A DNA stretch of 64,000 nt from assembly GCA_005772765.1 (NCBI GenBank), contig SXIR01000099.1:3214-67213 (forward strand), in the 5' to 3' direction. Shown piece after piece: positions 35,797-57,940 of the stretch. The translations under genes were made by a program, and so were the position numbers. Numbering within the stretch: position 1 is the first letter of the stretch; each line of letters starts with the position of its first letter. Origin of the DNA: Actinomycetota bacterium. GTDB taxonomy: Bacteria; Actinomycetota; Acidimicrobiia; IMCC26256; PALSA-610. Under the pieces are notes generated by a model. That model was not told the origin of the DNA and made no database searches. It saw nothing but the letters and a program-made list of their open reading frames with translations.

Positions 35797-35888
35797 ATCA
35801 TCGTTTCGTCACGCGCCGGGCCGGGTCAAACCTACGCCCGGTGCTCGCCCAGGATGTGAGCGCTTCCGGGGTGGAGCCGCGGGGCGAA

Positions 35889-36797: not shown

Positions 36798-36834
36798 GGC
36801 AGGTCGACAGTCATGGGCGATCGAGGTTCATGGC

Positions 36835-38010: not shown

Positions 38011-39700
38011 CGTTCGCCACGGCGCCCAGGGCGTGCAACGAACCGCCGACGTCGGGGAGCTCGATGTCGATCGCGGTGAACTCGATCGACCCTCCGAGTC
38101 GCGGCGTCGTGTACAGCGGCGTCGACGCGACGAGCTGGAGCACGAGCGATCCACCGTCGTCGGGCGCGTGCCACGCCACCGCCTCGAGGTCGACCGCCAG
38201 CTCATGATCGTCGCCATCGAGCACGACCGCGATCGGCGTGATCTGTCCTCCGACCACCGCGCCCGACACCGGATCGACGAGTTGCGCGAACACCCGAGTC
38301 GGCCGAGCGCCGGCCTCGGGGGTATCCGCTCGTCCGCGATAGCGCAGGCGAAGCCGCGGTCGACCGACGATGAGCGCGTCGGGAGCAACCTCGACGTCGG
38401 CTTCGAGGGTGTGTGGGCTCGCAACGAGCGCGGGCGTGATCAAGCGCATGACGTTCGCCATCCCGGCCGCGGTCGAATCGTCGGCGGCGGGTGGACCGGC
38501 ACGGCTCGCGGCGACGAGCGCCAGCGTTCCGGCGCCGCTCCCCCGCGCCGAGGCGCGCACCGGCAGCGGCCACGTATCGCTCGACCAATGAGCCCCGGTT
38601 TGATCCACGGTGGTGAACAGTTCGCCGGGTCGTGCGTCGATGCGCCGCACGTGGCGGTCGAGCCAGGCGACCACACGCTCGGCAACCCACGCGTCGTCAC
38701 GGCCCGTCGGACACACCCCATGTCCTCCGCAGTACCAGACCATGGCGGCGGGCCCGCCGCCCGCGCGCACCCGCTCGAAGACGCGGATCGCATCGTCGAG
38801 CGTGAACAGCGTGTCGACAGTTCCTTGCACGACCAACGTCGGCGCCTCGATCGCGTCGACGAGTGCACCCGGACCCAGCGAGTCCAGGTACGTGAGCTCG
38901 CCTGCACCCAGCACACCATCGTCGTTGGCGATCTCCGCGATCGTCAGCAGTTCCGGGGCCAGTGTCGCGTCGGTCGACGACACGAGCAGGTTGATCCACC
39001 CGACCTTCGTCGTGTCGTCTTTGGCGAGGCTGTTGCGCCACGTCGAGGTGACCATGTTCGGCGCGATCGCATCGACCCGACAATCGATCGCCGCGGCGAC
39101 AAGCTGGATTCCCGCTCCGTACGAACCGCCGAACATACCGAGCCGTGGATCACGGGCGCCGTCGAGGACCACCTCGGGACGCGTCGCAATCCAGTCGACG
39201 ATCGCGATGACGTCGCCGCCTTCGATCGCCGGATCGCCGAGCGCAACGACCCCGTCGGATGCGCCGAACCCGCGACGATCCCACGTGACGACGTTGTACC
39301 CGCGCCGCGTAAGTGCGTCGATCGCCAACGAGCCCGCGAACGCTTCGCTCGGTGTGTCGAGGGTTGCGCCGAGGCTGGCCCACCCCGGACTGACGAGCAA
39401 CGTCGGCGCGGGCACCCGCACCGCGGGAACGAAGTTCACGCGCAGTCGGACGTCGTCGTGGGACATGAGATCGTACGAATCACGATCGACCGCCGTGACG
39501 TTGGCGCCGGGAGCGCCACCGCGTGCGGGCGGCGGCGGACACGAACGCGCCTCGGGGAGCTCCGCGATGGTGGTCGATGGTGCGCCGGTGACCTCGTCGT
39601 CGTCGGTGGTCGATCCAGCACCGCGTGGCTCCGACGAACACGCGCCGAGCCCCAGCAGTCCGGCGACGACCCCCGCGACGACGGAGCGTGGGGTCAACAC
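37982..39700 (-). CDS. CocE/NonD (S15 X-Pro dipeptidyl-peptidase-like) family hydrolase, lipoprotein
   Basis: GTG at 39700 overlaps the upstream stop (GTGTTGA). Lipobox LLGLGACSS. GGSYGA nucleophile elbow. Confidence 0.8.
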   Translation of the reverse strand: MLTPRSVVAGVVAGLLGLGACSSEPRGAGSTTDDDEVTGAPSTTIAELPEARSCPPPPARGGAPGANVTAVDRDSYDLMSHDDVRLRVNFVPAVRVPAPTLLVSPGWASLGATLDTPSEAFAGSLAIDALTRRGYNVVTWDRRGFGASDGVVALGDPAIEGGDVIAIVDWIATRPEVVLDGARDPRLGMFGGSYGAGIQLVAAAIDCRVDAIAPNMVTSTWRNSLAKDDTTKVGWINLLVSSTDATLAPELLTIAEIANDDGVLGAGELTYLDSLGPGALVDAIEAPTLVVQGTVDTLFTLDDAIRVFERVRAGGGPAAMVWYCGGHGVCPTGRDDAWVAERVVAWLDRHVRRIDARPGELFTTVDQTGAHWSSDTWPLPVRASARGSGAGTLALVAASRAGPPAADDSTAAGMANVMRLITPALVASPHTLEADVEVAPDALIVGRPRLRLRYRGRADTPEAGARPTRVFAQLVDPVSGAVVGGQITPIAVVLDGDDHELAVDLEAVAWHAPDDGGSLVLQLVASTPLYTTPRLGGSIEFTAIDIELPDVGGSLHALGAVANDAAAPGAGR

Positions 39701-41363: not shown

Positions 41364-41852
41364 GTGTTTCGCCTGACCAGCCGGGTCGAACCGGACTTCC
41401 TGTGGGCCATGCTCTACGAGGCAGTGTTCTGGCGCGACCTCGGCGAAGAGGAACGTCCGCCGCTCGCCGAGTTGCGCGAGCAGCGATGGTTTGCGCGCTA
41501 CGTCGACGGATGGGGCCGTGCGGGCGACACCGCACTCGTGGCGCTCGACCGCAACAACGAAGGCGTCGGTGCGGCGTGGTACCGCACGTTCGCTCCCGAC
41601 GATGCCGGGTTCGGCTTCATCGATGCCGACATCCCCGAGATCTCGATCGGCGTGTACGGAGAGTTCCGCGGTCGGGGTGTCGGCTCGTTGTTACTCGGAT
41701 CGCTCATCGTGCGTGCCCGCGCGCACGATCTTCCTGCGCTGTCATTGTCGGTTGCGGCCGAGAACCCCGCCCGACGCTTGTACGAACGACTCGGGTTCGT
41801 TGACGTCGCCGACGGCGACGGCTCGATCACCATGCGATTGGACCTCCAGTGA
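41364..41852 (+). CDS. GNAT family N-acetyltransferase
   Basis: Acetyl-CoA-binding motif FRGRGVGSLLL and ARRLYERLGF. Confidence 0.85.
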   Translation: MFRLTSRVEPDFLWAMLYEAVFWRDLGEEERPPLAELREQRWFARYVDGWGRAGDTALVALDRNNEGVGAAWYRTFAPDDAGFGFIDADIPEISIGVYGEFRGRGVGSLLLGSLIVRARAHDLPALSLSVAAENPARRLYERLGFVDVADGDGSITMRLDLQ

Positions 41853-42436
41853 CAGACCTCGACCTCGAGCAGCCGAACTCGACCGGTCGCACCGCAACGC
41901 GCGGCAATCGAGTCGCACTGGCCGTCATCGGCGTCGGGTTTCTCGCGGTGTTCGCCGCGCTCATCGGCGGGTTCGCGATCGGACGGTCGGCCGAACCCAT
42001 CGGCGACGCCGGACCCGCCGTCCAAGACGCGTGCGTGCGCGCCCACGGGGACCTCAAGGCCTTCGGACCGATTCCTGACGACGCCGACGAGATCGCGCTC
42101 GCCGATCGAGTCGACCGCGAAACCACACGGTTGCGCGAGATGCTCGACGAGATCCGGGTTGCCGACGCTGGCAACGCCGCAGGGCAGGCCGCGCTGAACG
42201 GCTGGATCGCCGATTGGGATCGTTTGCTCGACGCGCGCGACGCCGCGTCGGCGAAGGTCCGCGGCGGCGAAATTCCCGACACATGGCTCCCGCCTGCCGT
42301 CGACGGCAAGGTCGAGGGGATCGACGGACGAATGGACGAATACGCGCGCCGTGAGATCCTGACGGCGTGCACGACCGACGTACTCGAGGCCGACAACCTC
42401 GACGGAATCCGCACCTACCGAAGCATCGAGGAGTAG
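41849..42436 (+). CDS. Hypothetical membrane-anchored protein
   Basis: GTGA overlap with the GNAT stop. TM segment VALAVIGVGFLAVFAALIGGFAI. Confidence 0.6.
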   Translation: MTDLDLEQPNSTGRTATRGNRVALAVIGVGFLAVFAALIGGFAIGRSAEPIGDAGPAVQDACVRAHGDLKAFGPIPDDADEIALADRVDRETTRLREMLDEIRVADAGNAAGQAALNGWIADWDRLLDARDAASAKVRGGEIPDTWLPPAVDGKVEGIDGRMDEYARREILTACTTDVLEADNLDGIRTYRSIEE

Positions 42437-42443
42437 CACGAAC

Positions 42444-43211
42444 ATGGCACGTCTCGACGAGAAGGTCGCAGTCATCACGGGCGGCGCAAGCGGGATGGGC
42501 AAGGTCGCCTCCGAGCGGTTCGTGGCCGAAGGCGCTCGCGTTGTCGTCGTCGACTTCGACGAAGCCGGAGGACGGGCGGTCGCCGACGCACTCGGCGATC
42601 GGGCGACCTTCGTGCGCGCCGACGTCTCGAACGAGGCCGACTGCCAGGCGATGGTCGCCCACGCGATGTCGACCTTCGGCGCGTTGCACGTGCTCTACAA
42701 CAACGCGGGCGTGTTTCCCAACGACGACGGTGGTGTGCTCGAGACGCCGGAGTCGACCTGGGATCGAGTGATGGAGATCAACCTCAAAGGCGTCTGGCTG
42801 GGGTGTCGCGCGGGTATCCCAGCGATGGTCGAATCCGGTGGCGGCTCGATCGTCAACGTCGCGTCGTTCGTCGCGCTCATGGGTGCCGCAACCGCGCAGA
42901 TTGCGTACACGTCGTCAAAGGGCGGCGTCCTCGCAATGACTCGCGAGATCGCGGTCGAGTGGGGCCGGCGTGGCATTCGGGCGAACTCTTTGTGTCCCGG
43001 CCCGGTCGACACTCCCCTGCTCGCCGAACTCATGAGCGATCCCGCTCGCAAGGCCCGCCGGCTCGTGCACATCCCGATGGGGCGGCTCGCTCAGGCCCAC
43101 GAGATCGTGAACGCTGCGTTGTTCCTGGCGTCCGACGAAGCGAGCTACATCACCGGCAGCCAGCTCGTCGTCGACGGTGGCATCACCGCGGCCTACGTCA
43201 CGCCTGAATAG
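42444..43211 (+). CDS. SDR family oxidoreductase
   Basis: TGGASGMG, NNAG, YTSSK motifs. Confidence 0.9.
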   Translation: MARLDEKVAVITGGASGMGKVASERFVAEGARVVVVDFDEAGGRAVADALGDRATFVRADVSNEADCQAMVAHAMSTFGALHVLYNNAGVFPNDDGGVLETPESTWDRVMEINLKGVWLGCRAGIPAMVESGGGSIVNVASFVALMGAATAQIAYTSSKGGVLAMTREIAVEWGRRGIRANSLCPGPVDTPLLAELMSDPARKARRLVHIPMGRLAQAHEIVNAALFLASDEASYITGSQLVVDGGITAAYVTPE

Positions 43212-43427
43212 CGCATCTCGCGTCCCTCCGGGACCCTCGGCCGTCGCCGGACGACGACTACCGCGCGGTAACTCTGCTGATCGACCGAGCTTTCTTCGCG
43301 TTCGGTCGGCCACCCAACGCGACACGTCGTCCAAAAAGGCCGGGGATGCGTGACAGGCCGCCGGGCGCCGTGTCACAGTGCCCGTGCAGCACCACCTTCA
43401 ATCGGCATACGAGCACGGGGGTTCTCG

Positions 43428-45104
43428 ATGACCGCTTCTCACGACGCTGACCGCCAGCGCCTCCACGAACTGGGTTATGCCCAAGAGTTGAACCGCAGGA
43501 TGGGTTGGTTCTCCAACTTCGCCATCAGCTTCTCGATCATCAGCATCCTTGCGGGCGGAACGACGACGTACTACCTCGCGGGCTTTGCCGGCGGGCCCCG
43601 CATGATCACGCTGGGATGGATCATCGTCGGCTTCTTCGCGCTGCTCGTCGGCATGGCAATGGCTGAGATCGTGTCGGTGTATCCCACCGCGGGCGGCCTC
43701 TACTACTGGTCGAGCAAACTCGCACGGAAAAACGGTGCGATGTGGAGTTGGTTCACCGGGTGGTTCAACCTGATCGGTCAGATCGGTGTCATCGCCTCGG
43801 TCGACTATGCGCTCGCACTGTTCACGCTCTACCTCTACAAGTTGTTCGAGAACGACTTCGTGATCACGAAGTACTGGGCCTTCCTCGTCTTTGCCGTCAT
43901 GCTCGGACTGCACGGCCTGATCAACTCTGCCGGCGTCAACGTTGTCAAGAAACTCGGCGACATCAGTGTTTGGTGGCATGTCGTCGGCGTCTTGGTGATC
44001 TTCGTGCTGCTCCTGGTCGCTCCGGACAACCGCGAGGGATTCGGATTCATCTTCGACTACAACAACGGAACCGGCTGGACGAACAACGGCGGATCGAGCT
44101 TTCTGCCGGGGCTCTACGCCTGCATGATCGGGTTACTCCTTGCGCAGTACACCATCACCGGATTCGACGCGTCGGCGCACGTCAGTGAGGAGACCCACGA
44201 TGCTGGGCGCAGCGCGTCGATTGCCATTGTGCGTTCGATCTACGTCTCGGCAATCGCGGCGCTGATCCTCAACATCGCAATGCTGCAGGCGACACCGAAG
44301 GGGCAGTTCAGCAACCTCATCCTCGGCGTCGACGGCTTCTACGCAACCGGAGGCGCGAATGCGCTCGCCGTCCCGCTCGGTGGCATCGGAGCGAAGTTGC
44401 TCATCGCGATCTGTGTCGTCGGTCAGTTCTTCTGTGGCATGGCGTCGGTGACCGCCAACTCCCGCATGATCTACGCATTCTCCCGGGACGGCGCAATGCC
44501 CGGACACAAGTTGTGGCACCGCATCAACCCGCGCACCCGCACGCCAACGAACTCGATCTGGCTCGGGTGCGGACTTTCGCTCGCCGTCGGGGCGCTGTCG
44601 CTTTACCAGGCGAACGACTACTCCGTGGCGTTCTTCGCGATGACGGGGATGTGCGTCGTCGGGCTGTACATCGCGTACGTCATCCCGATCTACCTTCGGC
44701 TCACAAACCCTGACTTCAAACAAGGCGAGTGGAACCTCGGCAACTACAGCAAGCTCGTGGGTTGGACCTCGGTTGCTTGGGTCGGCTTCATCACGATCTT
44801 GTTCTTCGCACCCCCGTTCTGGCCCTTCTGGCCGATCGGCGGGAGCACCGACTTCGACGGCGTTCCCTTCTACCACCTGTCCAACGTGAACTTCACCGGT
44901 CCGATCATCATCGGACTGTTCGCCGTCGTCGGCGTGTGGTGGTTGGTCTCGGCGAAGAAGTGGTTCAAGGGGCCGCAGGTGCAGGGAACTCCTGACGAGC
45001 TTCGCCTGATCGAGGACGCGCTCGAACGCGGTGACGTTTCGACGTTCCGGAAACTCGAAGACGCCGAGGACGCACGAGTCACCGAGCGGCAGCACGGCCA
45101 CTGA
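43428..45104 (+). CDS. APC-superfamily amino acid/amine permease
   Basis: ATG at 43428 (residue 27 of the ORF). About 12 TM segments. FSNFAISFSIISILAG and AEIVSVYPTAGGLYYW motifs. Confidence 0.9.
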   Translation: MTASHDADRQRLHELGYAQELNRRMGWFSNFAISFSIISILAGGTTTYYLAGFAGGPRMITLGWIIVGFFALLVGMAMAEIVSVYPTAGGLYYWSSKLARKNGAMWSWFTGWFNLIGQIGVIASVDYALALFTLYLYKLFENDFVITKYWAFLVFAVMLGLHGLINSAGVNVVKKLGDISVWWHVVGVLVIFVLLLVAPDNREGFGFIFDYNNGTGWTNNGGSSFLPGLYACMIGLLLAQYTITGFDASAHVSEETHDAGRSASIAIVRSIYVSAIAALILNIAMLQATPKGQFSNLILGVDGFYATGGANALAVPLGGIGAKLLIAICVVGQFFCGMASVTANSRMIYAFSRDGAMPGHKLWHRINPRTRTPTNSIWLGCGLSLAVGALSLYQANDYSVAFFAMTGMCVVGLYIAYVIPIYLRLTNPDFKQGEWNLGNYSKLVGWTSVAWVGFITILFFAPPFWPFWPIGGSTDFDGVPFYHLSNVNFTGPIIIGLFAVVGVWWLVSAKKWFKGPQVQGTPDELRLIEDALERGDVSTFRKLEDAEDARVTERQHGH

Positions 45105-45111
45105 CGCGTCG

Positions 45112-46035
45112 TTGAGCACTTCCGAGTTTGCATCACTTCTCGCACGTGTGCCCGGCTGGAACGGCCGGGCACACGTCGTGCGTGCACTCGACGGAGGAAT
45201 CACGAACCGAAATCTGTTGATCGCAGTCGGCGAACAACATCACGTGTTCCGGGTCGCGGGCAACGACACGAACCTGCTCGAGATCCGTCGCGACGTCGAG
45301 CACCAAGCCGCCACCCGGGCCGCAAGGCTCGGCATCGCGCCGCCCGTGACCGCATTCCTCGAACCCGAGGGTTATCTCGTCACCGAGTTCGTGACGGCGC
45401 AGGCCCTTTCCTCCGACGAGATGCGCCAGACCGATCGAATCCGTCAGATCGCGGCGCTCCTGCGCACCTTCCACGCCACTGCGCCGCTCGCCGGCGACTT
45501 CGATGCGTTCGCCGTGCCCCACCTGCACGCGGCCGCAGCCCAGTCCCGAGGCGTCGAGGTTCCCGAACCCGATTTCGTCAAGGCGACGGAAGCGGCAGAA
45601 CGGATCCGGCACGCGTTCGCCGCGTCGCCCGAAGGCCACCGTCCATGTCACAACGACCTACTCAATGCGAACTTCCTCGTCGACGGGGCGCGCATCTGGT
45701 TGCTCGACTGGGAGTACGCCGGGAACAACGATCGCTACTTCGATCTCGGCAATCTCTGCGTGAACAACAGTTTCGACGAGGCGGAGCGAGACGAACTCCT
45801 CACCGCGTACTTCGGCTCGGCATCGGTCCGGCGTCGTGCCAGACTCCGGCTGATGATGATCATGAGCGACTTTCGCGAGGCGATGTGGGCGGTGGTCCAG
45901 CAAGGCATCAGCACCCTCGACTTCGACTACCGGGCCTATGCGGCCCGGCACTTCGACCGCCTGCACGGCGCGGTCGCCGACGCCGAGTTCGAGTCGTGGC
46001 TGGTCGCGGCGACGGCGGGTGAACCCGATGCGTGA
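45112..46035 (+). CDS. Choline/ethanolamine-kinase-family phosphotransferase
   Basis: TTG at 45112, 7 nt after the permease stop. Brenner motif HNDLLNANFL and LDWEYAGNND. Confidence 0.8.
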   Translation: MSTSEFASLLARVPGWNGRAHVVRALDGGITNRNLLIAVGEQHHVFRVAGNDTNLLEIRRDVEHQAATRAARLGIAPPVTAFLEPEGYLVTEFVTAQALSSDEMRQTDRIRQIAALLRTFHATAPLAGDFDAFAVPHLHAAAAQSRGVEVPEPDFVKATEAAERIRHAFAASPEGHRPCHNDLLNANFLVDGARIWLLDWEYAGNNDRYFDLGNLCVNNSFDEAERDELLTAYFGSASVRRRARLRLMMIMSDFREAMWAVVQQGISTLDFDYRAYAARHFDRLHGAVADAEFESWLVAATAGEPDA

Positions 46036-48472
46036 TCGGGCGCGGGTCGTCGTGGTCGGCGCCGGGATCGGTGGCGCGTCGATTGCCTGGCATCTCGCGC
46101 AACGCGGCGAGACGGATGTGGTCGTGGTCGAACGCTCCGAGCCCACGAGCGGTTCGACGTTCCACAGCGCCGGCCTGGTCGGCCAGCTCCGCGGATCGCT
46201 CCCGCTGACGACCATGATGATGCACAGCGTCGATGTCTACCGGCGGCTCGAGGCGGACGCCGAGCGCACCGGTCGATCGACGGGTTGGCGCGAGGTCGGG
46301 TCGTTGCGCATCGCCTCGACGACGCCTCGCATGGAGGAGCTGCGCCGCCAGTACGGCTGGGCGCAGACCTTCGGGCTCCCGATGGAACTGCTGTCGGCCC
46401 GCGAGTGTGTCGACAAGTTTCCGTTGATGAGCCCGGACGGAGTGCTGGGCGGTGTCTGGCTGCCCACGGACGGGTTCCTCGACCCGAGCGGCGTGACCCA
46501 CGCGTTCGTCGGCGGCGCCAAAGATCTCGGCATCGAGTTCGCGACGGGCGTTCGCGTCATCGGGTTCACGATCGACCACGGCCGAGTGCGCGCCGTCGTC
46601 ACGGACCACGGCACCATCGAATGTGACGTCTGCGTGCTCGCATGCGGCATGTACACACCCGACGTCGCCGCACTCGCGGGTGTGAACGTTCCGATCGTGC
46701 CGATGGCGCACCAGTACCTGATCACCAAACGGGTCGACGGAGTCACCGACGATCTCCCCCAACTGCGTGACCCGGACAACCTCGTCTACTTCCGACGCGA
46801 AGGCGACGGTTTGGTGCTCGGCGGTTACGAACGTGACCCCGCGCCGTGGTCACTGCACGGAGTTCCGGACGACTTCAACAACAAGCTGCTGTCCGAGGAC
46901 TGGGATCGGTTCGCCCCGATCATGGCGAACGCGTGTCATCGCGTGCCCGCCGCCGAGTCGGCCGACATCGTGAGTCTCGTCAACGGCCCCGAAGGCTTCA
47001 CACCCGACAACGAGTTCGTGCTGGGCGAAAGCCACGTGCACGGCTTGTTCGTCGCGGCCGGGTTCTGCGCGCACGGCATTGCGGGCGCGGGCGGAGTCGG
47101 TCGAGCGATCAGCGAGTGGATCCTCGACGGCCAACCCAGTTTCGACTGTTGGAAGATGGACATTCGCCGCTTCGGCGCGCAGTACCGATCTCGCGAGTTC
47201 GCGCTGGCCCGCTCGGTCGAGGTGTACAGCACGTATTACGACATCCACTACCCCAACGAAGAGAAGCATGCGGGTCGGCCCCTGCGGCGATCGCCTGCGT
47301 ATTCGCGGCTGGTCGAACTCGGGTGCGTCTTCGGCGAGAAATCGAGTTGGGAGCGACCGAACTGGTTCGCGCCCAACGAACGAGCCGAGCACGACAACCA
47401 GCGACCGGCCGGGTGGGCAGGTGAGCACTGGTCGAGCGCGCTCGTGACCGAAGCTCGAGCGGCCCGCGACACCGCAGTGCTCTTCGACGAGACGAGTTTT
47501 TCGAAACTCGAACTCGAGGGTCCAGGGGCCCTGGCGTTCTTGCAACGCGTGTGCGCCAACCAGATCGATCGTCCGGTCGGATCGGTCGTCTACACCCAGC
47601 TGTGCAACCAGCGGGGCGGCATCGAATGCGACCTGACCGTGACCCGGGTCGGCGCACAGCGCTTCCTTGTCGTCACCGGCACTGCGTTCGGCCAACACGA
47701 CCTGGGGTGGATCCGCACCCAACTCGACCGCGAGCCGCCGGCCGAGCCGGTCCACGCGCGCGATGTCACATCGGCCTCTGCGTGTTTCGGCGTGTGGGGT
47801 CCGCGTGCGCGCGACATCCTCGCTCCGCTCACGCGCCAGCCCCTCGACAACGAGGCGTTCCCGTACCTCACCGCTCGCGAGTGCAGCATCGGCGCGGTGC
47901 CGACCATCGCGTTGCGGGTCACCTACGTCGGTGAACTCGGCTGGGAGCTGTACTGCCCCACCGAGTACGGACAGGCGTTGTGGGATCTGCTCTGGGAAGC
48001 AGGTGCCGAACACGGTCTCGTGGCGGGCGGGTATCGCGCCATCGACTCGTTGCGCATCGAGAAGGGCTACCGGGTGTGGGGCGCCGACATCTCGCCGGAC
48101 GACACCCCGTACGAGGCCGGACTCGGGTTCGCGGTCGCGCTCGACAAGGGCGTCGACTTCGTCGGGCGAGCCGCGTTGGCCGACCAGAAGGCCAACGGCG
48201 TTACGAGACGGCTCCGCGCCGTCCAACTCGACGATCCGACGGCAGTGGCCCTCGGCTCCGAACCAGTACGCATCGATGACAAGGTCGTGGGTCGAGTGAC
48301 CAGCGGCGGCGTCGGCTACCGCACGAATGCCTCGGTTGCGTACGTCTACGTGCCGGCCACGCTCAGCGAGTTCGGACGATCGGTCGACGTCGAGATCTTC
48401 GGCGATCGGGTCCGCGGCACGATCGTGCGCGACCCGATCTGGGACCCGTCGGGCGAGCGCCTCCGGGCCTAG
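46028..48472 (+). CDS. FAD-dependent oxidoreductase fused to a GcvT-like folate-binding domain (dimethylglycine/sarcosine dehydrogenase family)
   Basis: ATG at 46028 overlaps the kinase stop (ATGCGTGA). VVVGAGIGGASIAWHL dinucleotide fold. C-terminal GYRAIDSLRIEKGY. Confidence 0.9.
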   Translation: MRDRARVVVVGAGIGGASIAWHLAQRGETDVVVVERSEPTSGSTFHSAGLVGQLRGSLPLTTMMMHSVDVYRRLEADAERTGRSTGWREVGSLRIASTTPRMEELRRQYGWAQTFGLPMELLSARECVDKFPLMSPDGVLGGVWLPTDGFLDPSGVTHAFVGGAKDLGIEFATGVRVIGFTIDHGRVRAVVTDHGTIECDVCVLACGMYTPDVAALAGVNVPIVPMAHQYLITKRVDGVTDDLPQLRDPDNLVYFRREGDGLVLGGYERDPAPWSLHGVPDDFNNKLLSEDWDRFAPIMANACHRVPAAESADIVSLVNGPEGFTPDNEFVLGESHVHGLFVAAGFCAHGIAGAGGVGRAISEWILDGQPSFDCWKMDIRRFGAQYRSREFALARSVEVYSTYYDIHYPNEEKHAGRPLRRSPAYSRLVELGCVFGEKSSWERPNWFAPNERAEHDNQRPAGWAGEHWSSALVTEARAARDTAVLFDETSFSKLELEGPGALAFLQRVCANQIDRPVGSVVYTQLCNQRGGIECDLTVTRVGAQRFLVVTGTAFGQHDLGWIRTQLDREPPAEPVHARDVTSASACFGVWGPRARDILAPLTRQPLDNEAFPYLTARECSIGAVPTIALRVTYVGELGWELYCPTEYGQALWDLLWEAGAEHGLVAGGYRAIDSLRIEKGYRVWGADISPDDTPYEAGLGFAVALDKGVDFVGRAALADQKANGVTRRLRAVQLDDPTAVALGSEPVRIDDKVVGRVTSGGVGYRTNASVAYVYVPATLSEFGRSVDVEIFGDRVRGTIVRDPIWDPSGERLRA

Positions 48473-48513
48473 AACGATTCGATCGACGGCCTCGTAGGAT
48501 CCGCCCGACGTCG

Positions 48514-49920
48514 ATGGACACGAGCGACCAGGAGATCACCATGGTGCCGGGAATGTTGAGCGCGAGCGAACTCGAAGAGCGGATCCGCAACGGCAGCATC
48601 GATACGGTCCTCGTGACCTTTCCCGACCTCCAAGGTCGGTTGATGGGCAAACGGGTGACCGGCCACTTCTGGCTGAAGCAGATGCGAGGTGGCGACGGCG
48701 AGGTCCACGCCTGCAACTACCTGCTCGCGGTCGACAGCGAGATGAACGTCGTTGCGGGCTACGAGTACGCCAACTGGGACAAGGGCTACGGCGACTTCGC
48801 GCTCGTGCCGGACCTGGCGACGATCCGGATGATTCCGTGGCTCGAGAAGACGGCGCTCGTGATGTGCGACCTCGTCGAAGAACACGACGGCAGCCCGGTG
48901 GCCGTGTCTCCCCGACAGATCCTGAAAGCCCAGATCGCCAAGGCGGCCGCCCTCGGCTACCGCGTGTACGCCGGGAGCGAACTCGAGTTCTTCTTGTTCA
49001 AGGATTCCCTCGACGAGGCGGCGGCGAAGCGGTACCTCGACCTGACGCCGCATTCGAACGTCGTGCTCGACTACCACATCCTTCAAACGAGCCGCGACGA
49101 GTATCTGATTCGAGCCATTCGCAACGGCATGGACGGCGCCGGCGTGCCCGTCGAGTTCTCCAAGGGCGAGGCCGGCTATGGCCAACATGAGATCAACCTC
49201 GAGTACGCCGACGCGTTGACGATGGCCGATCGGCACACGATCTACAAGAACGGCGCGAAGGAGATCGCCCATCAACACGGACGAGCGATCACGTTCATGG
49301 CGAAGTACTCGATGGACGACGTCGGATCGTCGTGTCACATCCACTCGTCGGTATGGGACGGCGACGGCACGACGTCGCTGATGTACGACGAGCACGCCGA
49401 ACACCACTTCTCGACCGTCGGCCGCGGGTGGCTCGGCGGCCTCATTGCCACTGGTCGCGAGTTCGCGTGGATGTACGCGCCGACGGTCAATTCCTACAAG
49501 CGCTATCAGCCCGAATCGTGGGCGCCGACCGCGCTCGCGTGGGGCCACGACAATCGCACGTGCGGCTATCGCATGGTCGGCCACGGCCAGTCGTATCGAG
49601 TCGAGTCACGCATTCCCGGCGCCGACGCGAACGCCTACCTGGCGTTCGCGGCGACGATCGCCGCTGGACTTCACGGGATCGAACACGGCATCGATCCGCC
49701 TACGCGCTTCGATGGCAACGCGTACGTCGCGCCCGACGTCGCTCGCGTGCCGTGGAACATCGTCGAAGCCATCGAGGAGTTCGAACACTCCAAGGTTGCC
49801 CGCGCCGCATTCGGCGACGCGGTGCACTTCCATCTGCTCAACACCGCAAAGCAGGAGTGGGCCGCGTTCAACCGAGCTGTGACCGACTGGGAACTCAAAC
49901 GAAACTTCGACCAGTGGTGA
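48514..49920 (+). CDS. Glutamine synthetase family protein (gamma-glutamyl-amine synthetase-like, PuuA/GlnA3/GlnA4 type)
   Basis: GSELEFFLF, GYGQHEIN, SSCHIHSS and NAYLAFAA motifs. Confidence 0.9.
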   Translation: MDTSDQEITMVPGMLSASELEERIRNGSIDTVLVTFPDLQGRLMGKRVTGHFWLKQMRGGDGEVHACNYLLAVDSEMNVVAGYEYANWDKGYGDFALVPDLATIRMIPWLEKTALVMCDLVEEHDGSPVAVSPRQILKAQIAKAAALGYRVYAGSELEFFLFKDSLDEAAAKRYLDLTPHSNVVLDYHILQTSRDEYLIRAIRNGMDGAGVPVEFSKGEAGYGQHEINLEYADALTMADRHTIYKNGAKEIAHQHGRAITFMAKYSMDDVGSSCHIHSSVWDGDGTTSLMYDEHAEHHFSTVGRGWLGGLIATGREFAWMYAPTVNSYKRYQPESWAPTALAWGHDNRTCGYRMVGHGQSYRVESRIPGADANAYLAFAATIAAGLHGIEHGIDPPTRFDGNAYVAPDVARVPWNIVEAIEEFEHSKVARAAFGDAVHFHLLNTAKQEWAAFNRAVTDWELKRNFDQW

Positions 49921-50654
49921 GCCACGGACCGGCCGCGCGGCCGTTGATCGCGCTCACTGCGCGCCGGCTCGGCGACGGTCGGGTCCGGGGCTGGCACTCG
50001 GGCGGGATCGGCGAGCGCGAGGGATACCTGCAGCGGGTGCGGGCCGCCGGCGGTTGGCCGGTGTTGTGCGATCCGGTGCCGATCGACGCGCCGGAGGCCG
50101 AGGCGTTCGTGACAAGGTTCGACGGCGTGTTGTTGACCGGCGGGCCCGACGTCGAACCCGAACGGTACGGCGAGGCTGCCCACCCGACCGTCTACGGCAC
50201 CGACACCTTCGTCGACCACTTCGAGATGGCGCTGTGTCGCGCCGCGCTCGCGACCAACACCCCGATGCTGGCGATCTGTCGCGGGGTGCAAGTCCTCAAC
50301 GTCGCGTTGGGCGGCTCGCTCTGGCAGGACATCGCCACCGAGCCGGGTGTCGAGCCGCACGGACGCCCCGGCGTTGCCGACGGCGAGTTCCTCCACACGG
50401 TCGACGTCGCCGCAGGATCCCAACTCGCCGCGATCATGCGGACGCGTTCCCCCGTCGTGTCCTGCCACCATCACCAGGCGCTTCGACGGCTCGGCGACGG
50501 GCTGACCGTCACCGCCATGGCTGTCGACGGCACGATCGAAGCCGTCGAGGTCGTCGACCGCCCGGTCATTGCCGTCCAGTGGCACCCCGAAGACACCGCA
50601 ACCACCGACCCGGCGAACCAGGCCCTGTTCGACTGGCTGTGCGCGCCGCGCTGA
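49917..50654 (+). CDS. Class I glutamine amidotransferase-like gamma-glutamyl hydrolase (peptidase C26, E. coli PuuD type)
   Basis: GTG at 49917 overlaps the GS stop (GTGA). AICRGVQVLNVALGG catalytic Cys and VQWHPE motifs. Confidence 0.85.
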   Translation: MSHGPAARPLIALTARRLGDGRVRGWHSGGIGEREGYLQRVRAAGGWPVLCDPVPIDAPEAEAFVTRFDGVLLTGGPDVEPERYGEAAHPTVYGTDTFVDHFEMALCRAALATNTPMLAICRGVQVLNVALGGSLWQDIATEPGVEPHGRPGVADGEFLHTVDVAAGSQLAAIMRTRSPVVSCHHHQALRRLGDGLTVTAMAVDGTIEAVEVVDRPVIAVQWHPEDTATTDPANQALFDWLCAPR

Positions 50655-50659: not shown

Positions 50660-51571
50660 TCAGATCGCCGCGAACGCGTCGACGACGTCCCGCACGAATC
50701 GTTCGAGCGCCGTCGCGTCCTTGGCGTGGCGGCCGAGGCCGACTGCCGCTTCGGTCACCCCCAGATCGGCAAGGTGCGTGCTCGCAGACCGAGTGGCCTC
50801 GATGTCGACGTGGCCATCGTCGGTCGTGACGACCTTCGCGCTCGCACGGACCCGCAGCGTCGCGGGATCGCGACCTGCGGCCGAAAACGCGGCGCGGAGC
50901 GCGTCGATGCCGTCGCGTAGTTGTTCGACACTCGTCGTGTGGATCGGCAACCAGCCCGCGCCGAGCGCAGCGATGCGGGCAACGTGGGCGGGTGTTGCGG
51001 CCATGCCGTAGTGCAGCGGAATCCCGGTGATCGGCGAGCACTGCACGGGTTGTGGCAGGCACCAGGTCGGCCCGAACGCCACCGTCGCCGATGCGAACGA
51101 CACCGGTGCGGTTTGGGTCCACAGCGCGGCACAGGCGCGCAGACCATCGTCGAGCAGATCCCAGCGACGTGACCAATCGAGTCCACACGCGGCGTACTCC
51201 TCGCGCTGCCACCCGGGGCCGACGCCGAGATCGAGACGACCGCGGCTGATCTGGTCGAGCGTCGCGCAGACCTTGGCGAGCAGCGCCGGTGGCCGCAGGG
51301 GCGTGAGGACGATGCCTGTCCCGAGCCGGACCCGTTCGGTCACCGCGGCAATCGCGCTCAGCAGCGTCAGGGGCTCGGGCCAAGGTTCGTCGGGACCGTA
51401 CGGAAAGGTTCCGAAGGGGTAGCGATCGGTCCGTTCGCCCATGACCACGTGGTCGGCCAGTACGAGCGTCGTCGCCCCAGCGGCGTCGAGCACACGCGCC
51501 GCGTCGAGCACGCGCCCCAAGTCGTTGTCGAACAGCCGACTGAACCCTGACACCGTCACGCTGACCTGCAC
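50660..51571 (-). CDS. LLM-class F420-dependent oxidoreductase
   Basis: GTG at 51571 preceded by GAGGAGGA. LGTGIVLTPLR and LDLGVGPGWQREEY motifs. Confidence 0.85.
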   Translation of the reverse strand: MQVSVTVSGFSRLFDNDLGRVLDAARVLDAAGATTLVLADHVVMGERTDRYPFGTFPYGPDEPWPEPLTLLSAIAAVTERVRLGTGIVLTPLRPPALLAKVCATLDQISRGRLDLGVGPGWQREEYAACGLDWSRRWDLLDDGLRACAALWTQTAPVSFASATVAFGPTWCLPQPVQCSPITGIPLHYGMAATPAHVARIAALGAGWLPIHTTSVEQLRDGIDALRAAFSAAGRDPATLRVRASAKVVTTDDGHVDIEATRSASTHLADLGVTEAAVGLGRHAKDATALERFVRDVVDAFAAI

Positions 51572-51586: not shown

Positions 51587-51650
51587 GTCGTCGATCTATT
51601 GGGTCGTCGATCTATTGGGTCGTCGATTCATTGGGTCATCGATTCATTGG
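51587..51650. repeat. 16-bp tandem repeat x4 spanning the Zn-ADH stop codon to the next gene's RBS
   Basis: GTCGTCGATCTATTGG x2 (51587, 51603), GTCGTCGATTCATTGG (51619), GTCATCGATTCATTGG (51635). Confidence 0.9.
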
Positions 51651-52733
51651 GACCACGACGGCGTGGAGCGGCGGGGTACCGCGTTCGCCGGCCATCGTTT
51701 CGAGCAAGTCCGTGACCCGGTCGGCCGCCAGGGGTTCGACGCGACGATCGATATCGGTCCACGGGAACTGCCGGTCGGTCAACAGCGAGAACGCCGATTG
51801 GTACGCCGCGGTGTCGACACCCAGGGCGCCGATGACCCGCAGTTCCTTGAACACGACATGATCGACGAGAAACTCGGGAACCGCACTCCCGCGCGTCCCG
51901 GCGATTACGACCGTCCCGCCGGGACGGGCGAGCGCAATCGCTTGCGCGACCGCCTGGGGCGCCTTGGCCGTGACGTCGACGACGACGTCGGCGAGCCGCC
52001 CACCCGTCGAGTCACGCAACGCCACAACGGGATCGTCGCGCGTCACGTCGACCGTGAGGTCGGCTCCGAATCGGCGGGCCATGGCCAGGCGGGGCGCGTC
52101 GCGTTCGCCCGCGCCCGTCACCATGACGGTTGCTGCGCCAGCGGTGATGGCGGCGGCGCACGCGGCGATACCGCGGATTCCGGGGCCGAGGACGGCGACG
52201 ACGTCGCCGGGTCGCGTGCCTGGCACCGTCACGCCCCACCGAACTCCGGCGCCAACCGGATTGAACAGCGTTGCCGTCACGGGATCGAGGTCGTCGGGGA
52301 CTCGCAGCAGCAGCGAGTCGGGCGCCAGGTACTGGTGCTCGGCGTAGCCGCCCCACAAACTCGGCGTGCGGTCGATATCGACGAAGCCGTACATGTCGCG
52401 CAATCCGTGTGCACGACAGCGGTTGTAGGAGCCTGCGATGCAGTCACCGCAGCGGCCGCACCGCTGAAACACCTCGACCGCGACACGATCGCCTGCCCCG
52501 ACCGACCACCGGGCCGCGGCCGATGCGCCGATCTCGTCGATCACCCCGACGGTCTCGTGTCCGGGGACGAAGGCGAATCCGCCGTTGAGTTGGCCGGTGA
52601 ACTGCTCGTGATCGGTTCCGCAGAGACCGCATGCCTCGACCTGCAGCCATCCGTCGTCGGGGTTGACGGGGCGCCGCTCGAACGACCGCTCGGCCAGCGA
52701 ACGTACGGACTCGAGTACGAGCGCGCAGGTCAT
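51636..52733 (-). CDS. Zinc-dependent alcohol dehydrogenase (MDR family)
   Basis: CGLCGTDH, GHETVG and CGRCGDC structural-zinc motifs. Confidence 0.9.
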   Translation of the reverse strand: MTCALVLESVRSLAERSFERRPVNPDDGWLQVEACGLCGTDHEQFTGQLNGGFAFVPGHETVGVIDEIGASAAARWSVGAGDRVAVEVFQRCGRCGDCIAGSYNRCRAHGLRDMYGFVDIDRTPSLWGGYAEHQYLAPDSLLLRVPDDLDPVTATLFNPVGAGVRWGVTVPGTRPGDVVAVLGPGIRGIAACAAAITAGAATVMVTGAGERDAPRLAMARRFGADLTVDVTRDDPVVALRDSTGGRLADVVVDVTAKAPQAVAQAIALARPGGTVVIAGTRGSAVPEFLVDHVVFKELRVIGALGVDTAAYQSAFSLLTDRQFPWTDIDRRVEPLAADRVTDLLETMAGERGTPPLHAVVVPMNR

Positions 52734-55131: not shown

Positions 55132-55908
55132 CTACAGGGTCAAGCCCCCGTCGATGGAAACGATCGAGCCGGTCATGTACCGCGCTTCGTCAGACGCAAC
55201 GAAGCTGATGACCGAGGCAACTTCTTCGGGCTGGCTCGTGCCCATCGGGGTCATCGACTTTCGCATGTCCTTCCAGCTCGCACCTTCGGGGAACGAGTTG
55301 GCGAACGAACCCTGCAGCGGCGTGTCCATGCCACCGGGCGCAACACAGTTCACGGTGATGTTGCGCTTCATGTACTCGTCAGCCAGCGCCCGAGTGAGGT
55401 TGATGACACCGCCCTTCGACGCGCAGTAGGCGGCGCTGTAGGGCTGGCCCATCAGACCTGCGTTCGATGCAACGGTCACGATGCGGCCGCCATCACCGGC
55501 CAGGAAGTGTCGCAGTGCGGCTTGTGCGACGAGAAACGTGCCGGTCAAGTTGACGCCGAGGATTCGGGCCCATTCGTCGAACGGCTGATCGTGGCTGTTG
55601 GCGAGCTTGCCGATTCCCGCGCACGTCACTGCGAGGTCGAGCCCACCGAACGTCTGGGCGACAGCGTCGACTGCGGCCGCGACCGAAACCGGGTCGCCGA
55701 CGTCGCAGGCCTGGGCGATTGCGCTTGCCCCGATCGCCGTCGCCGTCTCGCTCGCCGCACCTTCGGCAATGTCGAGGCACGCAACCCGGGCGCCTTCGGC
55801 TGCGAGCCGTTGTGCGGTTGCCCGCCCGAGCCCGGAGCCGGCTCCGGTCACGATTGCGCGCCGACCATCGTGTCGACCCGGGACCACCAGTACCGTGGGT
55901 TCAGCCAT
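55132..55908 (-). CDS. SDR family oxidoreductase
   Basis: ATG at 55908 (part of ORF 55132..56499). TGAGSGLG and YCASK motifs. Confidence 0.9.
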   Translation of the reverse strand: MAEPTVLVVPGRHDGRRAIVTGAGSGLGRATAQRLAAEGARVACLDIAEGAASETATAIGASAIAQACDVGDPVSVAAAVDAVAQTFGGLDLAVTCAGIGKLANSHDQPFDEWARILGVNLTGTFLVAQAALRHFLAGDGGRIVTVASNAGLMGQPYSAAYCASKGGVINLTRALADEYMKRNITVNCVAPGGMDTPLQGSFANSFPEGASWKDMRKSMTPMGTSQPEEVASVISFVASDEARYMTGSIVSIDGGLTL

Positions 55909-57940
55909 GGCGAGCGAATCTAACGCACCGTCAGATTTCGACGCGCGGCGGCACGCGGCCGAGATCTTCGGCGCGTTCGGAATTGCGATCACCCAGCCGT
56001 TGCTCGACCTCGTGGGCCGCAACGCCGAGCTCCTCATCGCCCGGCGGACGACCCTGATGCAGGCGTTCTTGCTCGCGCTGGGCGCCGCGGCCGTGGTTCC
56101 TGCGATCGCCGTCGCCGTCGAAGTCGCCGTCGCCCGGATCGCGCCCCGCGCCGCACGCGGTTTGCACCGGATCGTGTTGGCGTTCGCGTTCGGGCTCGTT
56201 GGGCTCCAGATCGCCAACGGCATCACCACCTCCCCCGTCGCCGCGTTCGCGGCGGCGATCGCGGCGACGATCGCGGGTTTCGGGTTGATCACCCTGGCAG
56301 CCACCACGACGTTGCTTCGCTTCCTGGCGGCCGCCCCACCCGTGTTCATCGCGCTGTTCTTGTTCTTCTCGCCGGTAACCGACGTGGTGATCGGCGACCA
56401 AACCGCTGCTCGCTCGGCCGCGGCCGAGAGCGACCAACGGGTCGTCCTGATCGTCTTCGATGAACTGCCGCTCCGGTCGCTGCTCGACGGCCGCGGCAAC
56501 GTCGACGCCGAGCTCTACCCGAACTTCGCTCGTCTCGAGGCGCAGTCCACTTGGTATCGGAACACGACGACGGCGGCCGCGTTCACCCAGCAGGCTCTCC
56601 CGGCAATCTTGACTGGCTACGAACCCACCGGCGCCGACACGCTGCCGGTTGCCCGAGCTCACCCCGACAGCCTCTTCACGCGCCTGAACGGGGTCGTCGA
56701 GATGAACGTGCACGAGACCGCGACCCAGATCTGCCCTGAGTCGATCTGTGCCGGGTCGTCGAGCGGCGGGTTCTTCGAGCTGGCCGGGGCGGTCGCTCGG
56801 CTGTACGGCGAGTCGCTCGAACCCGGGTCGGACCGAACCCAGTTCGACGAAAACGCCGCGGCACGGATTCGACTGCCGACGGCTCGCCGATTCATCGCGT
56901 CGCTCGGGCCGGCGAGCAACGGACGGCTCGACATGGTGCACCTCGAGCTACCGCACTGGCCGTGGCAGTACACCGCGACCCTGCAGGACACCGGTGCCGA
57001 CAACGAACTCCCGGGCGAGACCTATTTGCAATGGCCGACGGCGATCGGCGCCGAACTCGGGCGACAACGCCACCTCCTGCAGCTACAGGCGAGCGACACG
57101 CTGCTCGGCGCGATGCTCGATCGCCTCGACGCAGCCGGCATCACCGATGATTCGCTCGTCATCGTCACGGCCGATCACGGCGTGTCCTTCAAAGCCGGTG
57201 AGCCGTTGCGAAACCCCTCCGAACAGAACCTCGCCGACGTCGCCTGGGTACCGCTGTTCGTCAAGTACCCCGGACAGGCGGTTGGGACCATCGACGAACG
57301 ACGGGCGACGACGCTCGACATCGTCCCGACCGTGCTGCGCGCGACCGGCGTCGACGAGGGCCCAGAGGGATTCGACCTGGATGGGTTTGCGTTGCAGGAC
57401 CCCGCGCGCCGCGACCGCGAGCGTCGGATGGCAACGTTCGTCGTGTTTCCGACGCCACGCGACCTCGTGGCGGACGACGACGGACGCGTCGCAATCGACG
57501 AGTCCTTGTATGCGGGCGTGCAACAAGAACGCGCTGCGCCGATCGGCGGCGATCCCGCGTTGCGGATCTTTCGCCACAGCGCGTACGGCGACCTCATCGG
57601 CCGCACGGTCGCACCTGCCTGGATCGGCGACGACGACACCACGACGATCGCGTTCGAATCACCGGAACGTCTGCGCGACGTCGATCGCGACGCGACGATC
57701 GCTCCGTGGTTCGTGAACATCGCCAGCATCAACGGACTCGACCGGCCCGTCCCCGTCGCGATCGTGCTCAACGGTCGCATCGCGGCAGTGAGCGAAACAC
57801 TCCCCCCGGACGACGGCACGTCGACGTTGGTGTTCAACCTTCCACCGGCGCTCATCGTCGACGGCGACAACACCGTCGAGGTGTATCGCATCGACGGCCT
57901 GGGACCGGCGATGCAACTCCACCGCTTCCCAAGCGTCTGA
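55907..57940 (+). CDS. Membrane protein with a sulfatase / alkaline-phosphatase-superfamily ectodomain (LtaS/phosphotransferase-like)
   Basis: ATG at 55907 (residue 104 of ORF 55598..57940). About 5 N-terminal TM segments. LIVFDELP...FTQQALPAILTG...VTADHG motifs. Confidence 0.75.
   Translation: MASESNAPSDFDARRHAAEIFGAFGIAITQPLLDLVGRNAELLIARRTTLMQAFLLALGAAAVVPAIAVAVEVAVARIAPRAARGLHRIVLAFAFGLVGLQIANGITTSPVAAFAAAIAATIAGFGLITLAATTTLLRFLAAAPPVFIALFLFFSPVTDVVIGDQTAARSAAAESDQRVVLIVFDELPLRSLLDGRGNVDAELYPNFARLEAQSTWYRNTTTAAAFTQQALPAILTGYEPTGADTLPVARAHPDSLFTRLNGVVEMNVHETATQICPESICAGSSSGGFFELAGAVARLYGESLEPGSDRTQFDENAAARIRLPTARRFIASLGPASNGRLDMVHLELPHWPWQYTATLQDTGADNELPGETYLQWPTAIGAELGRQRHLLQLQASDTLLGAMLDRLDAAGITDDSLVIVTADHGVSFKAGEPLRNPSEQNLADVAWVPLFVKYPGQAVGTIDERRATTLDIVPTVLRATGVDEGPEGFDLDGFALQDPARRDRERRMATFVVFPTPRDLVADDDGRVAIDESLYAGVQQERAAPIGGDPALRIFRHSAYGDLIGRTVAPAWIGDDDTTTIAFESPERLRDVDRDATIAPWFVNIASINGLDRPVPVAIVLNGRIAAVSETLPPDDGTSTLVFNLPPALIVDGDNTVEVYRIDGLGPAMQLHRFPSV
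55919..55935. promoter_or_regulatory. Inverted repeat TCTAACG-CAC-CGTCAGA, near-identical to 2231-2247, 11 nt upstream of the SDR ATG
   Basis: Direct reading. On the minus strand it reads TCTGACGGTGCGTTAGA, followed and overlapped by the -10-like TAGATT 8 nt before the ATG. Confidence 0.45.

Follow-up and report, generated by a model that had tools for sequence, protein, structure and literature searches.

The locus considered here raises the question of why an operon apparently equipped for the catabolism of ethanolamine should carry, between its permease and its ligase, genes for a choline-kinase-like enzyme and a folate-linked demethylase. The genes lie in a 64,000-nucleotide stretch (the window; G+C content about 67%) of contig SXIR01000099.1 from an Actinomycetota bacterium, and window proteins are 99–100% identical to proteins of uncultured Actinomycetota assemblies (P0001 for the kinase and P0121 for the demethylase; locus and protein numbers of this kind are our own). 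The preliminary description of this DNA had listed five plus-strand genes at 43428–50654, encoding an APC permease, the kinase, the demethylase, a glutamine-synthetase-like (GS-like) enzyme, and a C26 gamma-glutamyl hydrolase, and had read them as a single unconventional pathway for an N-methylated amine or amino alcohol. We propose, tentatively and with somewhat less than even confidence, that this locus represents an operon of the GlnA4/Eto type for the gamma-glutamyl route of ethanolamine catabolism, with a conserved two-gene module inserted between permease and ligase. The ethanolamine backbone is known, and what is new is the front end of kinase and folate-dependent demethylase, which probably extends the use of ethanolamine to its N-methylated derivatives.

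Reading the DNA together with profile searches recovered all five open reading frames with their starts, ends, and domains as first described, and the junction sizes were likewise confirmed. The permease TGA (45102–45104) and the kinase TTG start (45112) are separated by a 7-nt gap, the demethylase ATG (46028) overlaps the kinase TGA (46033–46035) by 8 nt, a 41-nt gap lies between the demethylase TAG (48470–48472) and the GS-like ATG (48514), and the GS-like stop and C26 start share the GTGA at 49917–49920, a 4-nt overlap. A scan for promoters and terminators detected no such site inside the gene block and, together with these gaps and overlaps, supports the single transcript suggested earlier. 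No riboswitch or other RNA was detected by an Rfam scan of 40.5–52 kb. An alternative in-frame GTG start of the kinase at 45148 agrees with the 295-aa call of the near-identical P0001, but residues upstream of this GTG are conserved among kinase homologues. The block is, moreover, larger than five genes, as a co-conserved gene for a short-chain dehydrogenase/reductase (SDR), which had been missed, ends 216 nt before the permease start (Table 1). This spacer contains an operator-like inverted repeat, GTGACAGGCCGCCGGGCGCCGTGTCAC (GTGACA-N15-TGTCAC), at 43351–43377; it was rejected as a conserved operator because it is absent from the equivalent spacers of 11 related loci.

A gamma-glutamyl route from ethanolamine to glycine has been published for Chromohalobacter, Streptomyces (GlnA4), and Phaeobacter (PMC6529630, PMC10132767). 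The Streptomyces glnA4 cluster encodes an SDR, an aldehyde dehydrogenase, a GS-like ligase, an amino-acid-type permease, and a glutamine-amidotransferase-type hydrolase (PMC6529630), and the predicted route leads from ethanolamine to gamma-glutamylethanolamide, then to the aldehyde and gamma-glutamylglycine, and finally to glycine and glutamate (PMC6529630, PMC9397018). In Phaeobacter sp. MED193, the gamma-glutamyl ethanolamine pathway is induced by phosphoethanolamine. Judged by protein family, the SDR, permease, GS-like, and C26 genes of the window, with the aldehyde dehydrogenase of its relatives, are the same gene set as in the published ethanolamine clusters, and functions in ethanolamine use are predicted for all four. 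The window SDR would be equivalent in role to Streptomyces orf2/SCO1611 and to the Phaeobacter dehydrogenase. The best NCBIfam match of the permease is TIGR00907, an amino-acid/choline transporter subfamily (334 bits, below cutoff). The GS-like protein scores 447 bits against PDB entry 11zs, 400 bits against 5dm3, which we take to be the C. salexigens enzyme Csal_0679, and 170 bits against the GmaS structure 9qur, and the catalytic motifs of the C26 hydrolase are intact (Cys in AICRG and His-x-Glu in WHPE).

The Csal_0678 region, GlnA4/SCO1610-1615, and the Eto operon of Phaeobacter sp. MED193 share with the window a cluster of GS-like ligase, SDR, amidohydrolase, and transporter, as well as the aldehyde dehydrogenase found in window relatives, and their end-products, glycine and glutamate, are those predicted for the window. 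However, the published clusters contain neither a kinase nor a DMGDH-like (dimethylglycine dehydrogenase-like) gene, both of which the window has; the window transporter is an APC permease in contrast to the published TRAP system; and, unlike in the published clusters, neither an aldehyde dehydrogenase nor a regulator is linked to the genes of the window. The earlier statement that no described pathway with this combination was known is not supported for the outer SDR, permease, GS-like, and C26 genes, which correspond to a published route; of the inner pair we found no description in the literature.

The E. coli Puu pathway (PuuP, PuuA, PuuB, PuuC, and PuuD) has a common logic with the proposed route, in that an amine is gamma-glutamylated, oxidized at its other end, and hydrolyzed, and the two share the GS-like and C26 families. 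However, Puu employs a flavin oxidase on an amine, whereas oxidation in the window would be carried out by an NAD(P)-type SDR on an alcohol, and domain scans detected neither a PuuB-type oxidase nor an aldehyde dehydrogenase in the window operon. The locus is not a Puu system because the GS-like protein reaches only 208.8 bits against the NCBIfam PuuA (GGputSyn) model (cutoff 650) and the C26 hydrolase only 95 bits against the PuuD model (cutoff 266). Because the SDR and aldehyde dehydrogenase match the published ethanolamine pathway, the demethylase is not the counterpart of PuuB that it had been taken for; the oxidation steps are assigned to the upstream SDR, plus the aldehyde dehydrogenase in relatives. 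It had been noted correctly that the operon contains no aldehyde dehydrogenase and that the nearest one lies 17 kb away, but the product of this distant gene (24955–26547) was rejected as a pathway enzyme, since it shares only 36% identity with the cluster-linked enzyme and falls in another family (TIGR04284). The N-methylglutamate pathway is not represented either, as the window contains no mgs or mgd genes and the match of the GS-like protein to GmaS is limited to the score given above.

Conservation was assessed by mapping the gene contexts of three kinase homologues and of 80 species-representative genome loci by tblastn with the window proteins. Co-occurrence was counted within 10 kb at 48 related loci with a kinase of at least 45% identity. 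At species level, the nearest genome is a metagenome-assembled genome (MAG) labelled Actinomycetota, and the relatives are mostly Acidimicrobiia. The demethylase lies directly downstream of the kinase on the same strand at 31 of the 42 loci with enough downstream sequence. The SDR gene, positioned directly upstream of the permease, is found in 29 of the 48 loci. The permease and the GS-like gene occur in 28 each, and the C26 and aldehyde dehydrogenase genes in 20 and 19, respectively; identity of the SDR is 88–91% in the closest relatives (L001 and L005). The complete order of SDR, permease, kinase, demethylase, GS-like, and C26 genes is repeated in L005, L010, L015, L016, L021, and L023. The gene arrangement is conserved far beyond chance, and the recurrence elsewhere that the preliminary description had called for as a check is borne out. 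The overlap of kinase and demethylase also recurs, measuring 8 nt in the window and in L001, 4 nt in L003, and 1 nt in L004. An aldehyde dehydrogenase is cluster-linked in L003, L004, L013, L014, L029, and the Solirubrobacterales loci. In the last of these, the ethanolamine-type genes, together with a gene for a GntR regulator, are oriented divergently to the kinase and demethylase genes. The preliminary description had also envisaged that the GS-like and hydrolase genes might prove to be standard enzymes to which the kinase and oxidoreductase are merely adjacent. The former are indeed predicted to be of the standard ethanolamine type, but in many genomes the latter are embedded between permease and GS-like gene and have junctions that overlap.

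Further genes accompany the cluster in some relatives. A homologue of the window's F420-dependent luciferase-like (LLM-class) oxidoreductase stands next to it in L001, L004, L005, L013, L019, L021, L023, and L057, either divergent from the SDR gene or convergent after the C26 gene, and this enzyme might replace the aldehyde-oxidizing step where a linked aldehyde dehydrogenase is absent. A 62%-identical homologue of the Zn-dependent alcohol dehydrogenase directly follows the C26 gene in L004. In L001 (13376–17124), L003 (13403–17540), L004 (13892–18023), and L011, an FGGY gene and a flavoprotein gene are situated between the demethylase and GS-like genes, and in L024 and L025 this insert is divergent; it is absent from the window and from L005. 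The FGGY protein is glycerol-kinase-like (403 bits to GlpK, cutoff 590), and the flavoprotein, with DAO and BFD [2Fe-2S] domains, resembles glycerol-3-phosphate oxidase (200–228 bits to type 2 GlpO, cutoff 460) and is accompanied by a second FAD protein, to which it is sometimes fused. As both fall below the curated cutoffs, they might act on a substrate other than glycerol. The insert is also consistent with an operon for phospholipid breakdown products, namely glycerol and amino-alcohol head groups.

The kinase belongs to the Pfam family Choline_kinase (PF01633), scoring 76.6 bits against a cutoff of 29. Its Brenner-type HNDLLNANF motif and its DWEYAG motif, already pointed out in the preliminary description, are invariant in an alignment of 15 kinase homologues, including residues H180, D182, N187, and D199-W-E-Y. 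The best curated NCBIfam family is GntI (NF041256) at 268.4 bits, below the equivalog cutoff of 357, and the kinases of proteobacterial pairs score 124–154 bits against it; the window kinase further scores 114 bits against PDB entry 3dxq and 67 bits against LicA. GntI phosphorylates the hydroxyl of a molecule with an N,N-dimethylamino group (PMC12371840), and similarity to it was counted as pointing to an ethanolamine-like methylated amine as the putative substrate. GntI, LicA, and ChoK share the choline-kinase/APH fold and catalytic motifs with the window kinase. However, GntI is biosynthetic and phosphorylates an N-hydroxyguanidine, and choline kinases feed lipid or teichoic-acid synthesis, whereas the window kinase is located in a catabolic operon.

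Homologues of the kinase number in the thousands, and an exhaustive search yielded 306 clusters at 50% identity (E <=1e-30). Among them are an apparently genuine fusion of HAD phosphatase and kinase (P0266, 522 aa), a fusion of APC permease and kinase (P0389, 776 aa), and a protein that joins the kinase to the start of a DAO domain (P0296, 400 aa). Locus L089 (1–3300) encodes EutH (fused or adjacent), the kinase, a HAD protein, and a DAO oxidoreductase without GcvT, the HAD gene lying between those for kinase and DAO protein. Kinases of 30–33% identity occur in another conserved cluster on plasmid pRL12 of Rhizobium johnstonii 3841 (L085) and on an Acidisoma plasmid (L088), in the order DeoR regulator, oligopeptide-type ABC transporter, Zn-dependent hydrolase, second phosphotransferase, and choline/ethanolamine-kinase-family protein; they were rejected as instances of the same module since the cluster has no demethylase. 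In SAR11 and alphaproteobacterial single-cell genomes (L070 8062–11340, and also L080 and L081), a 30%-identical kinase lies directly upstream of a demethylase for trimethylamine N-oxide (TMAO), a second case of this kinase family paired with a GcvT-domain demethylase. With 1108.7 bits against NF053776 (cutoff 1100), the enzyme of L070 qualifies as a bona fide TMAO demethylase, and GmaS-like and TmoX-like genes are found nearby.

All four domains of the window demethylase (DAO, FAO_M, GCV_T, and GCV_T_C) score above cutoff, giving an architecture identical to that of DMGDH, dimethylglycine oxidase (DMGO), and 4-methylaminobutanoate oxidase. Aligned over its full length, it shares 35% identity with rat DMGDH and likewise with Arthrobacter DMGO, and it retains His46 as the site of flavinylation, the dyad of His228 and Tyr254, and the Asp of the folate site (corresponding to AgDMGO Asp552). 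This architecture and these residues imply oxidative N-demethylation with capture of the one-carbon (C1) unit by tetrahydrofolate. HSAGLVGQLR following the flavinylated His, W375, and R380 are invariant in 48 kinase-linked demethylases from four phyla and absent from DMGDH and DMGO; by sequence, the kinase-linked enzymes are a separate clade, in which an extra Arg55 and Arg380 are invariant. They also differ from known members in always having a kinase partner, as the latter are kinase-free and act on carboxylate-bearing substrates. To our knowledge, all characterized DMGDH-family enzymes take amines that bear an anionic carboxylate. Homologues of the demethylase carry the automatic JGI label 4-methylaminobutanoate oxidase, and by analogy O-phospho-N-methylethanolamine would equal 4-methylaminobutanoate in chain length.

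Kinase and demethylase are linked across phyla and co-diverge. The pair is adjacent, and often overlapping, in Actinomycetota, Chloroflexota, and marine Proteobacteria, including Ktedonobacteraceae, Granulosicoccus, Actibacterium, Ruegeria, and Nonomuraea. The split of the kinase into subtypes A and B is paralleled by that of the demethylase into its own subtypes A and B, and two pairs are present at some loci. As a self-contained module, without a GS-like or C26 gene within 10 kb, the pair occurs in Proteobacteria, in Chloroflexota, and at many loci of Actinomycetota. The operon of Ruegeria sp. AD91A encodes a DeoR regulator, a TmoX-like binding protein, an ATPase, a permease, the kinase (D1823_RS19435), the demethylase (RS19440), and an IMPase-family protein (RS19445) whose best model is the histidinol-phosphatase HisN (247 bits, cutoff 275), and Actibacterium shares this HisN-like phosphatase. 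HisN is an amino-alcohol-phosphate phosphatase, and DeoR regulators, present in five of the proteobacterial loci, typically sense phosphorylated intermediates. The TmoX-like binding protein of Ruegeria, a protein of this kind being present at six of these loci, scores 273 bits against 4XZ6 (TmoX), a TMAO-binding protein that also binds choline, as does the TmoX of SAR11. Full-text literature searches turned up no description of a module of kinase and demethylase, with or without a phosphatase, no aerobic catabolic route for methylethanolamine or dimethylethanolamine, and no phospho-amine demethylase. Two unusual records were met among these loci. In a Ktedonobacteraceae MAG contig (L051, 9120 bp), two copies of the pair are arranged head to head as an inverted duplication whose arms score identically; this may be an inverted repeat of recent origin or an artefact of assembly. 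The chromosome of Nonomuraea gerenzanensis (L087, NZ_LT559118.1, 11.85 Mb) is filed as 'plasmid I', almost without annotation, and its divergent kinase and DMGDH-like proteins are 34% and 55% identical to those of the window.

On this basis, a route for N-methylethanolamine and N,N-dimethylethanolamine can be proposed, which we regard as quite possible while stopping just short of calling it probable. The permease would import ethanolamine and its N-methyl and N,N-dimethyl derivatives, and the choline-kinase-fold enzyme would O-phosphorylate the methylated amino alcohol, thereby providing an anionic handle. The DMGDH-like flavoprotein would then oxidize the N-methyl C–N bond of the phospho-ester, the C1 unit passing to tetrahydrofolate in the GcvT domain, and the product of demethylation would be phosphoethanolamine. 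A phosphatase would free ethanolamine, from which the GS-like enzyme would make gamma-glutamylethanolamide. The phosphatase gene is part of the operon in Rhodobacterales and is joined to that of the kinase in other cases; in this organism it is presumably located outside the window. The SDR and an aldehyde dehydrogenase, the latter encoded elsewhere or replaced in the window, would oxidize gamma-glutamylethanolamide to gamma-glutamylglycine, and the C26 hydrolase would release glycine and glutamate. The identity of the substrate, the action on the phospho-ester, and the order of the steps are what we infer from the genes and their contexts.

The argument for a phosphorylated intermediate is that, in the proteobacterial operons, kinase and phosphatase flank a single other enzyme. 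Alone they would form a futile cycle, so the enzyme between them very probably needs the phosphate, which leads to the proposal that the demethylase acts on the O-phospho ester. The HAD fusion (P0266), the HAD gene of L089, the HisN-like genes, and the DeoR regulators were all counted toward such an intermediate. By analogy, the phosphate would supply an amino alcohol with the equivalent of the carboxylate handle of DMGDH substrates. N-methylethanolamine and N,N-dimethylethanolamine are the most economical substrates because the pair occurs inside ethanolamine operons in Actinomycetota, its kinase is linked to EutH, and the transporters associated with it are of the choline/TMAO type; a flavin amine dehydrogenase cannot oxidize quaternary choline. 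There is also a precedent for substrates bearing a phosphate or phosphonate, since the DAO-family enzymes PbfC and PbfD oxidize N-methyl-2-aminoethylphosphonate, a phosphonate isostere (PMC10590968). These flavoenzymes, acting on an N-methylated two-carbon phosphonate amine, are the closest analogue of what is proposed. However, they lack a GcvT domain, act on a naturally occurring phosphonate and not on a kinase product, and cleave the ethyl C–N bond to give phosphonoacetaldehyde and methylamine, whereas the window enzyme would remove the methyl group. That kinase, folate-linked flavoprotein, and phosphatase together constitute an undescribed catabolic strategy, 'phosphorylation-enabled N-demethylation', is a more doubtful proposal, which we offer as a possibility.

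Several points weigh against this route. The substrate is predicted from gene context only. No phosphatase is encoded in the window or in most Actinomycetota loci, and the cluster-type aldehyde dehydrogenase is absent from the 64-kb window. The two kinase-demethylase pairs held by some loci would be unneeded if one phosphorylation served both demethylations. The clade-specific Arg55 and Arg380 are only suggestive of a position at the substrate or active site. Because Arg305 and Glu322 show co-variation with Val/Ile in the subtype A demethylases, these two are probably a structural pair and were demoted as candidates for a phosphate site. The characterized outgroups in the demethylase comparison were two DMGDH-family sequences only. 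In addition, L089 is fragmented by frameshifts, and some of the kinase fusions may be artefacts of frameshifts or gene calling.

It is also possible, although unlikely in our judgement, that the same module serves another methylamine, hydroxylated or N-oxygenated, such as N-methyl-aminopropanol, a glycerol-related N-methylated amino-diol, or a TMAO-related hydroxylamine or N-oxide, in which case its location beside ethanolamine genes would reflect a shared regulon for methylated amines and phospholipid head groups and not a linear pathway. The proteobacterial binding protein is, after all, a homologue of TmoX, GntI as the best family of the kinase phosphorylates an N-hydroxy group, the SAR11-type kinase directly precedes a bona fide TMAO demethylase, and ethanolamine genes are altogether absent from many loci that have the pair; moreover, an amino-diol could be the substrate of the glycerol-kinase-like and glycerol-3-phosphate-oxidase-like proteins, which do not reach the cutoffs for GlpK and GlpO. 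However, the pair lies inside or beside the ethanolamine gene set in 28 of the 48 Actinomycetota loci, the kinase is linked to EutH, and TmoX binds an amino alcohol, choline, as well. A flavin amine dehydrogenase, furthermore, requires a tertiary or secondary amine and not an N-oxide, and the HisN-like phosphatase indicates an amino-alcohol phosphate with a C–O–P linkage.

The remaining explanations appear considerably weaker. It is improbable that the adjacency is coincidental, with an ordinary dimethylglycine or sarcosine dehydrogenase completing choline/betaine catabolism beside an independent choline/ethanolamine salvage kinase. Full-length similarity to DMGDH and DMGO with all catalytic residues shared, the Choline_kinase match, and a glycine end-product common to the gamma-glutamyl route would all fit this explanation, but it does not account for a translationally coupled adjacency that spans phyla with co-diverging subtypes, for the demethylase's own invariant signature, or for the phosphatases and DeoR regulators in the operons. 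Neither betA and betB nor betaine-demethylating genes were found nearby, and kinase-based choline salvage in bacteria is rare inside a permease-containing catabolic operon. Even less credible, and in our view highly improbable, is the integrated pathway of the preliminary description, in which one molecule is gamma-glutamylated and then demethylated, the DMGDH-like enzyme replacing PuuB, with phosphorylation on the same chain. The five genes are indeed contiguous, with the demethylase directly upstream of the GS-like gene. However, the pair occurs in many genomes without a GS-like or C26 gene within 10 kb, so its substrate cannot need gamma-glutamylation; the steps equivalent to PuuB and PuuC are already assigned to the SDR (with the aldehyde dehydrogenase in relatives); and amine oxidation by a flavin works poorly on the nitrogen of an amide. 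The earlier suggestion of an N-methylated amino alcohol, processed through gamma-glutamylation, phosphorylation, and folate-dependent demethylation, is supported by gene context, but it is unlikely that all three reactions take place on one molecule.

Table 1. Genes of the predicted N-methylethanolamine/ethanolamine block and its immediate neighbors in the window
Feature	Coordinates	Strand	Basis and predicted role
GNAT acetyltransferase	41364..41852	+	Pfam Acetyltransf_1; opens same-strand block
Small single-pass membrane protein	41849..42436	+	One hydrophobic helix VALAVIGVGFLAVFAALIGGFAIG; start overlaps GNAT stop
SDR dehydrogenase	42444..43211	+	adh_short_C2, 227 bits; predicted gamma-glutamylethanolamide dehydrogenase
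APC-family permease	43428..45104	+	AA_permease_2, 192 bits; predicted importer of ethanolamine and N-methylethanolamines
Choline-kinase/APH-fold kinase	45112..46035	+	Choline_kinase 76.6 bits, APH 71.6 bits; predicted N-methyl-amino-alcohol O-kinase
FAD and tetrahydrofolate N-demethylase, DMGDH/DMGO family	46028..48472	+	DAO + FAO_M + GCV_T + GCV_T_C
Glutamine-synthetase-like ligase	48514..49920	+	Gln-synt_C, 325 bits; predicted ethanolamine gamma-glutamylase, GlnA4/Csal_0679 type
C26 gamma-glutamyl hydrolase	49917..50654	+	Peptidase_C26, 190 bits; predicted gamma-glutamylglycine amidohydrolase
F420-dependent luciferase-like (LLM-class) oxidoreductase	50660..51571	-	TIGR03619, 204 bits (cutoff 167); convergent
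Zn-dependent alcohol dehydrogenase, possible accessory gene	51636..52733	-	ADH_N + ADH_zinc_N

Two small genes precede the SDR on the same strand. It is uncertain whether the GNAT gene is a member of the operon; tblastn located homologues of 56–67% identity at the equivalent position in the closest relatives only (L001, L005, and L011). The same three loci keep the membrane protein, which matched no family in Pfam or NCBIfam. The Streptomyces ethanolamine cluster opens with 'orf1, membrane protein' followed by the SDR gene (PMC6529630), and the window protein can be likened to this orf1 by position and description. Farther out, the flanks (55598–57940, 61690–62379, and 62360–64000; 29199–38424) encode two members of the sulfatase family and an RTX-repeat protein, along with a minus-strand set of fatty-acid type that comprises a thiolase-like protein, acyl-CoA dehydrogenases, and three AMP-binding ligases. 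The upstream block of acyl-CoA dehydrogenase and alpha-beta hydrolase genes is syntenic with L001 and L004.

The ethanolamine and choline head groups of phospholipids are major labile sources of nitrogen and carbon in soil and sea, and the gamma-glutamyl ethanolamine route has been recognized only recently. Partly methylated ethanolamines occur as intermediates when phosphatidylcholine is synthesized, are known to serve methanogens as substrates, and are also used as amines in industry. Should the proposed route be correct, the kinase-demethylase pair would fill a gap in the aerobic routes for these compounds, and a function could be assigned to hundreds of genes now called "thiamine-kinase-like" and "4-methylaminobutanoate-oxidase-like". 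Phosphorylation would then represent a new way of widening the substrate range of DMGDH-type enzymes, which is normally confined to carboxylate-bearing amines. The module is present in the cultured strains Ruegeria sp. AD91A, Actibacterium pelagium JN33, and Nonomuraea gerenzanensis, and the proposal is therefore directly testable. Such a module would be widespread among Chloroflexota, marine Proteobacteria, and the uncultured Actinomycetota of soil and freshwater, and it would tie the turnover of phospholipid head groups to C1 metabolism.

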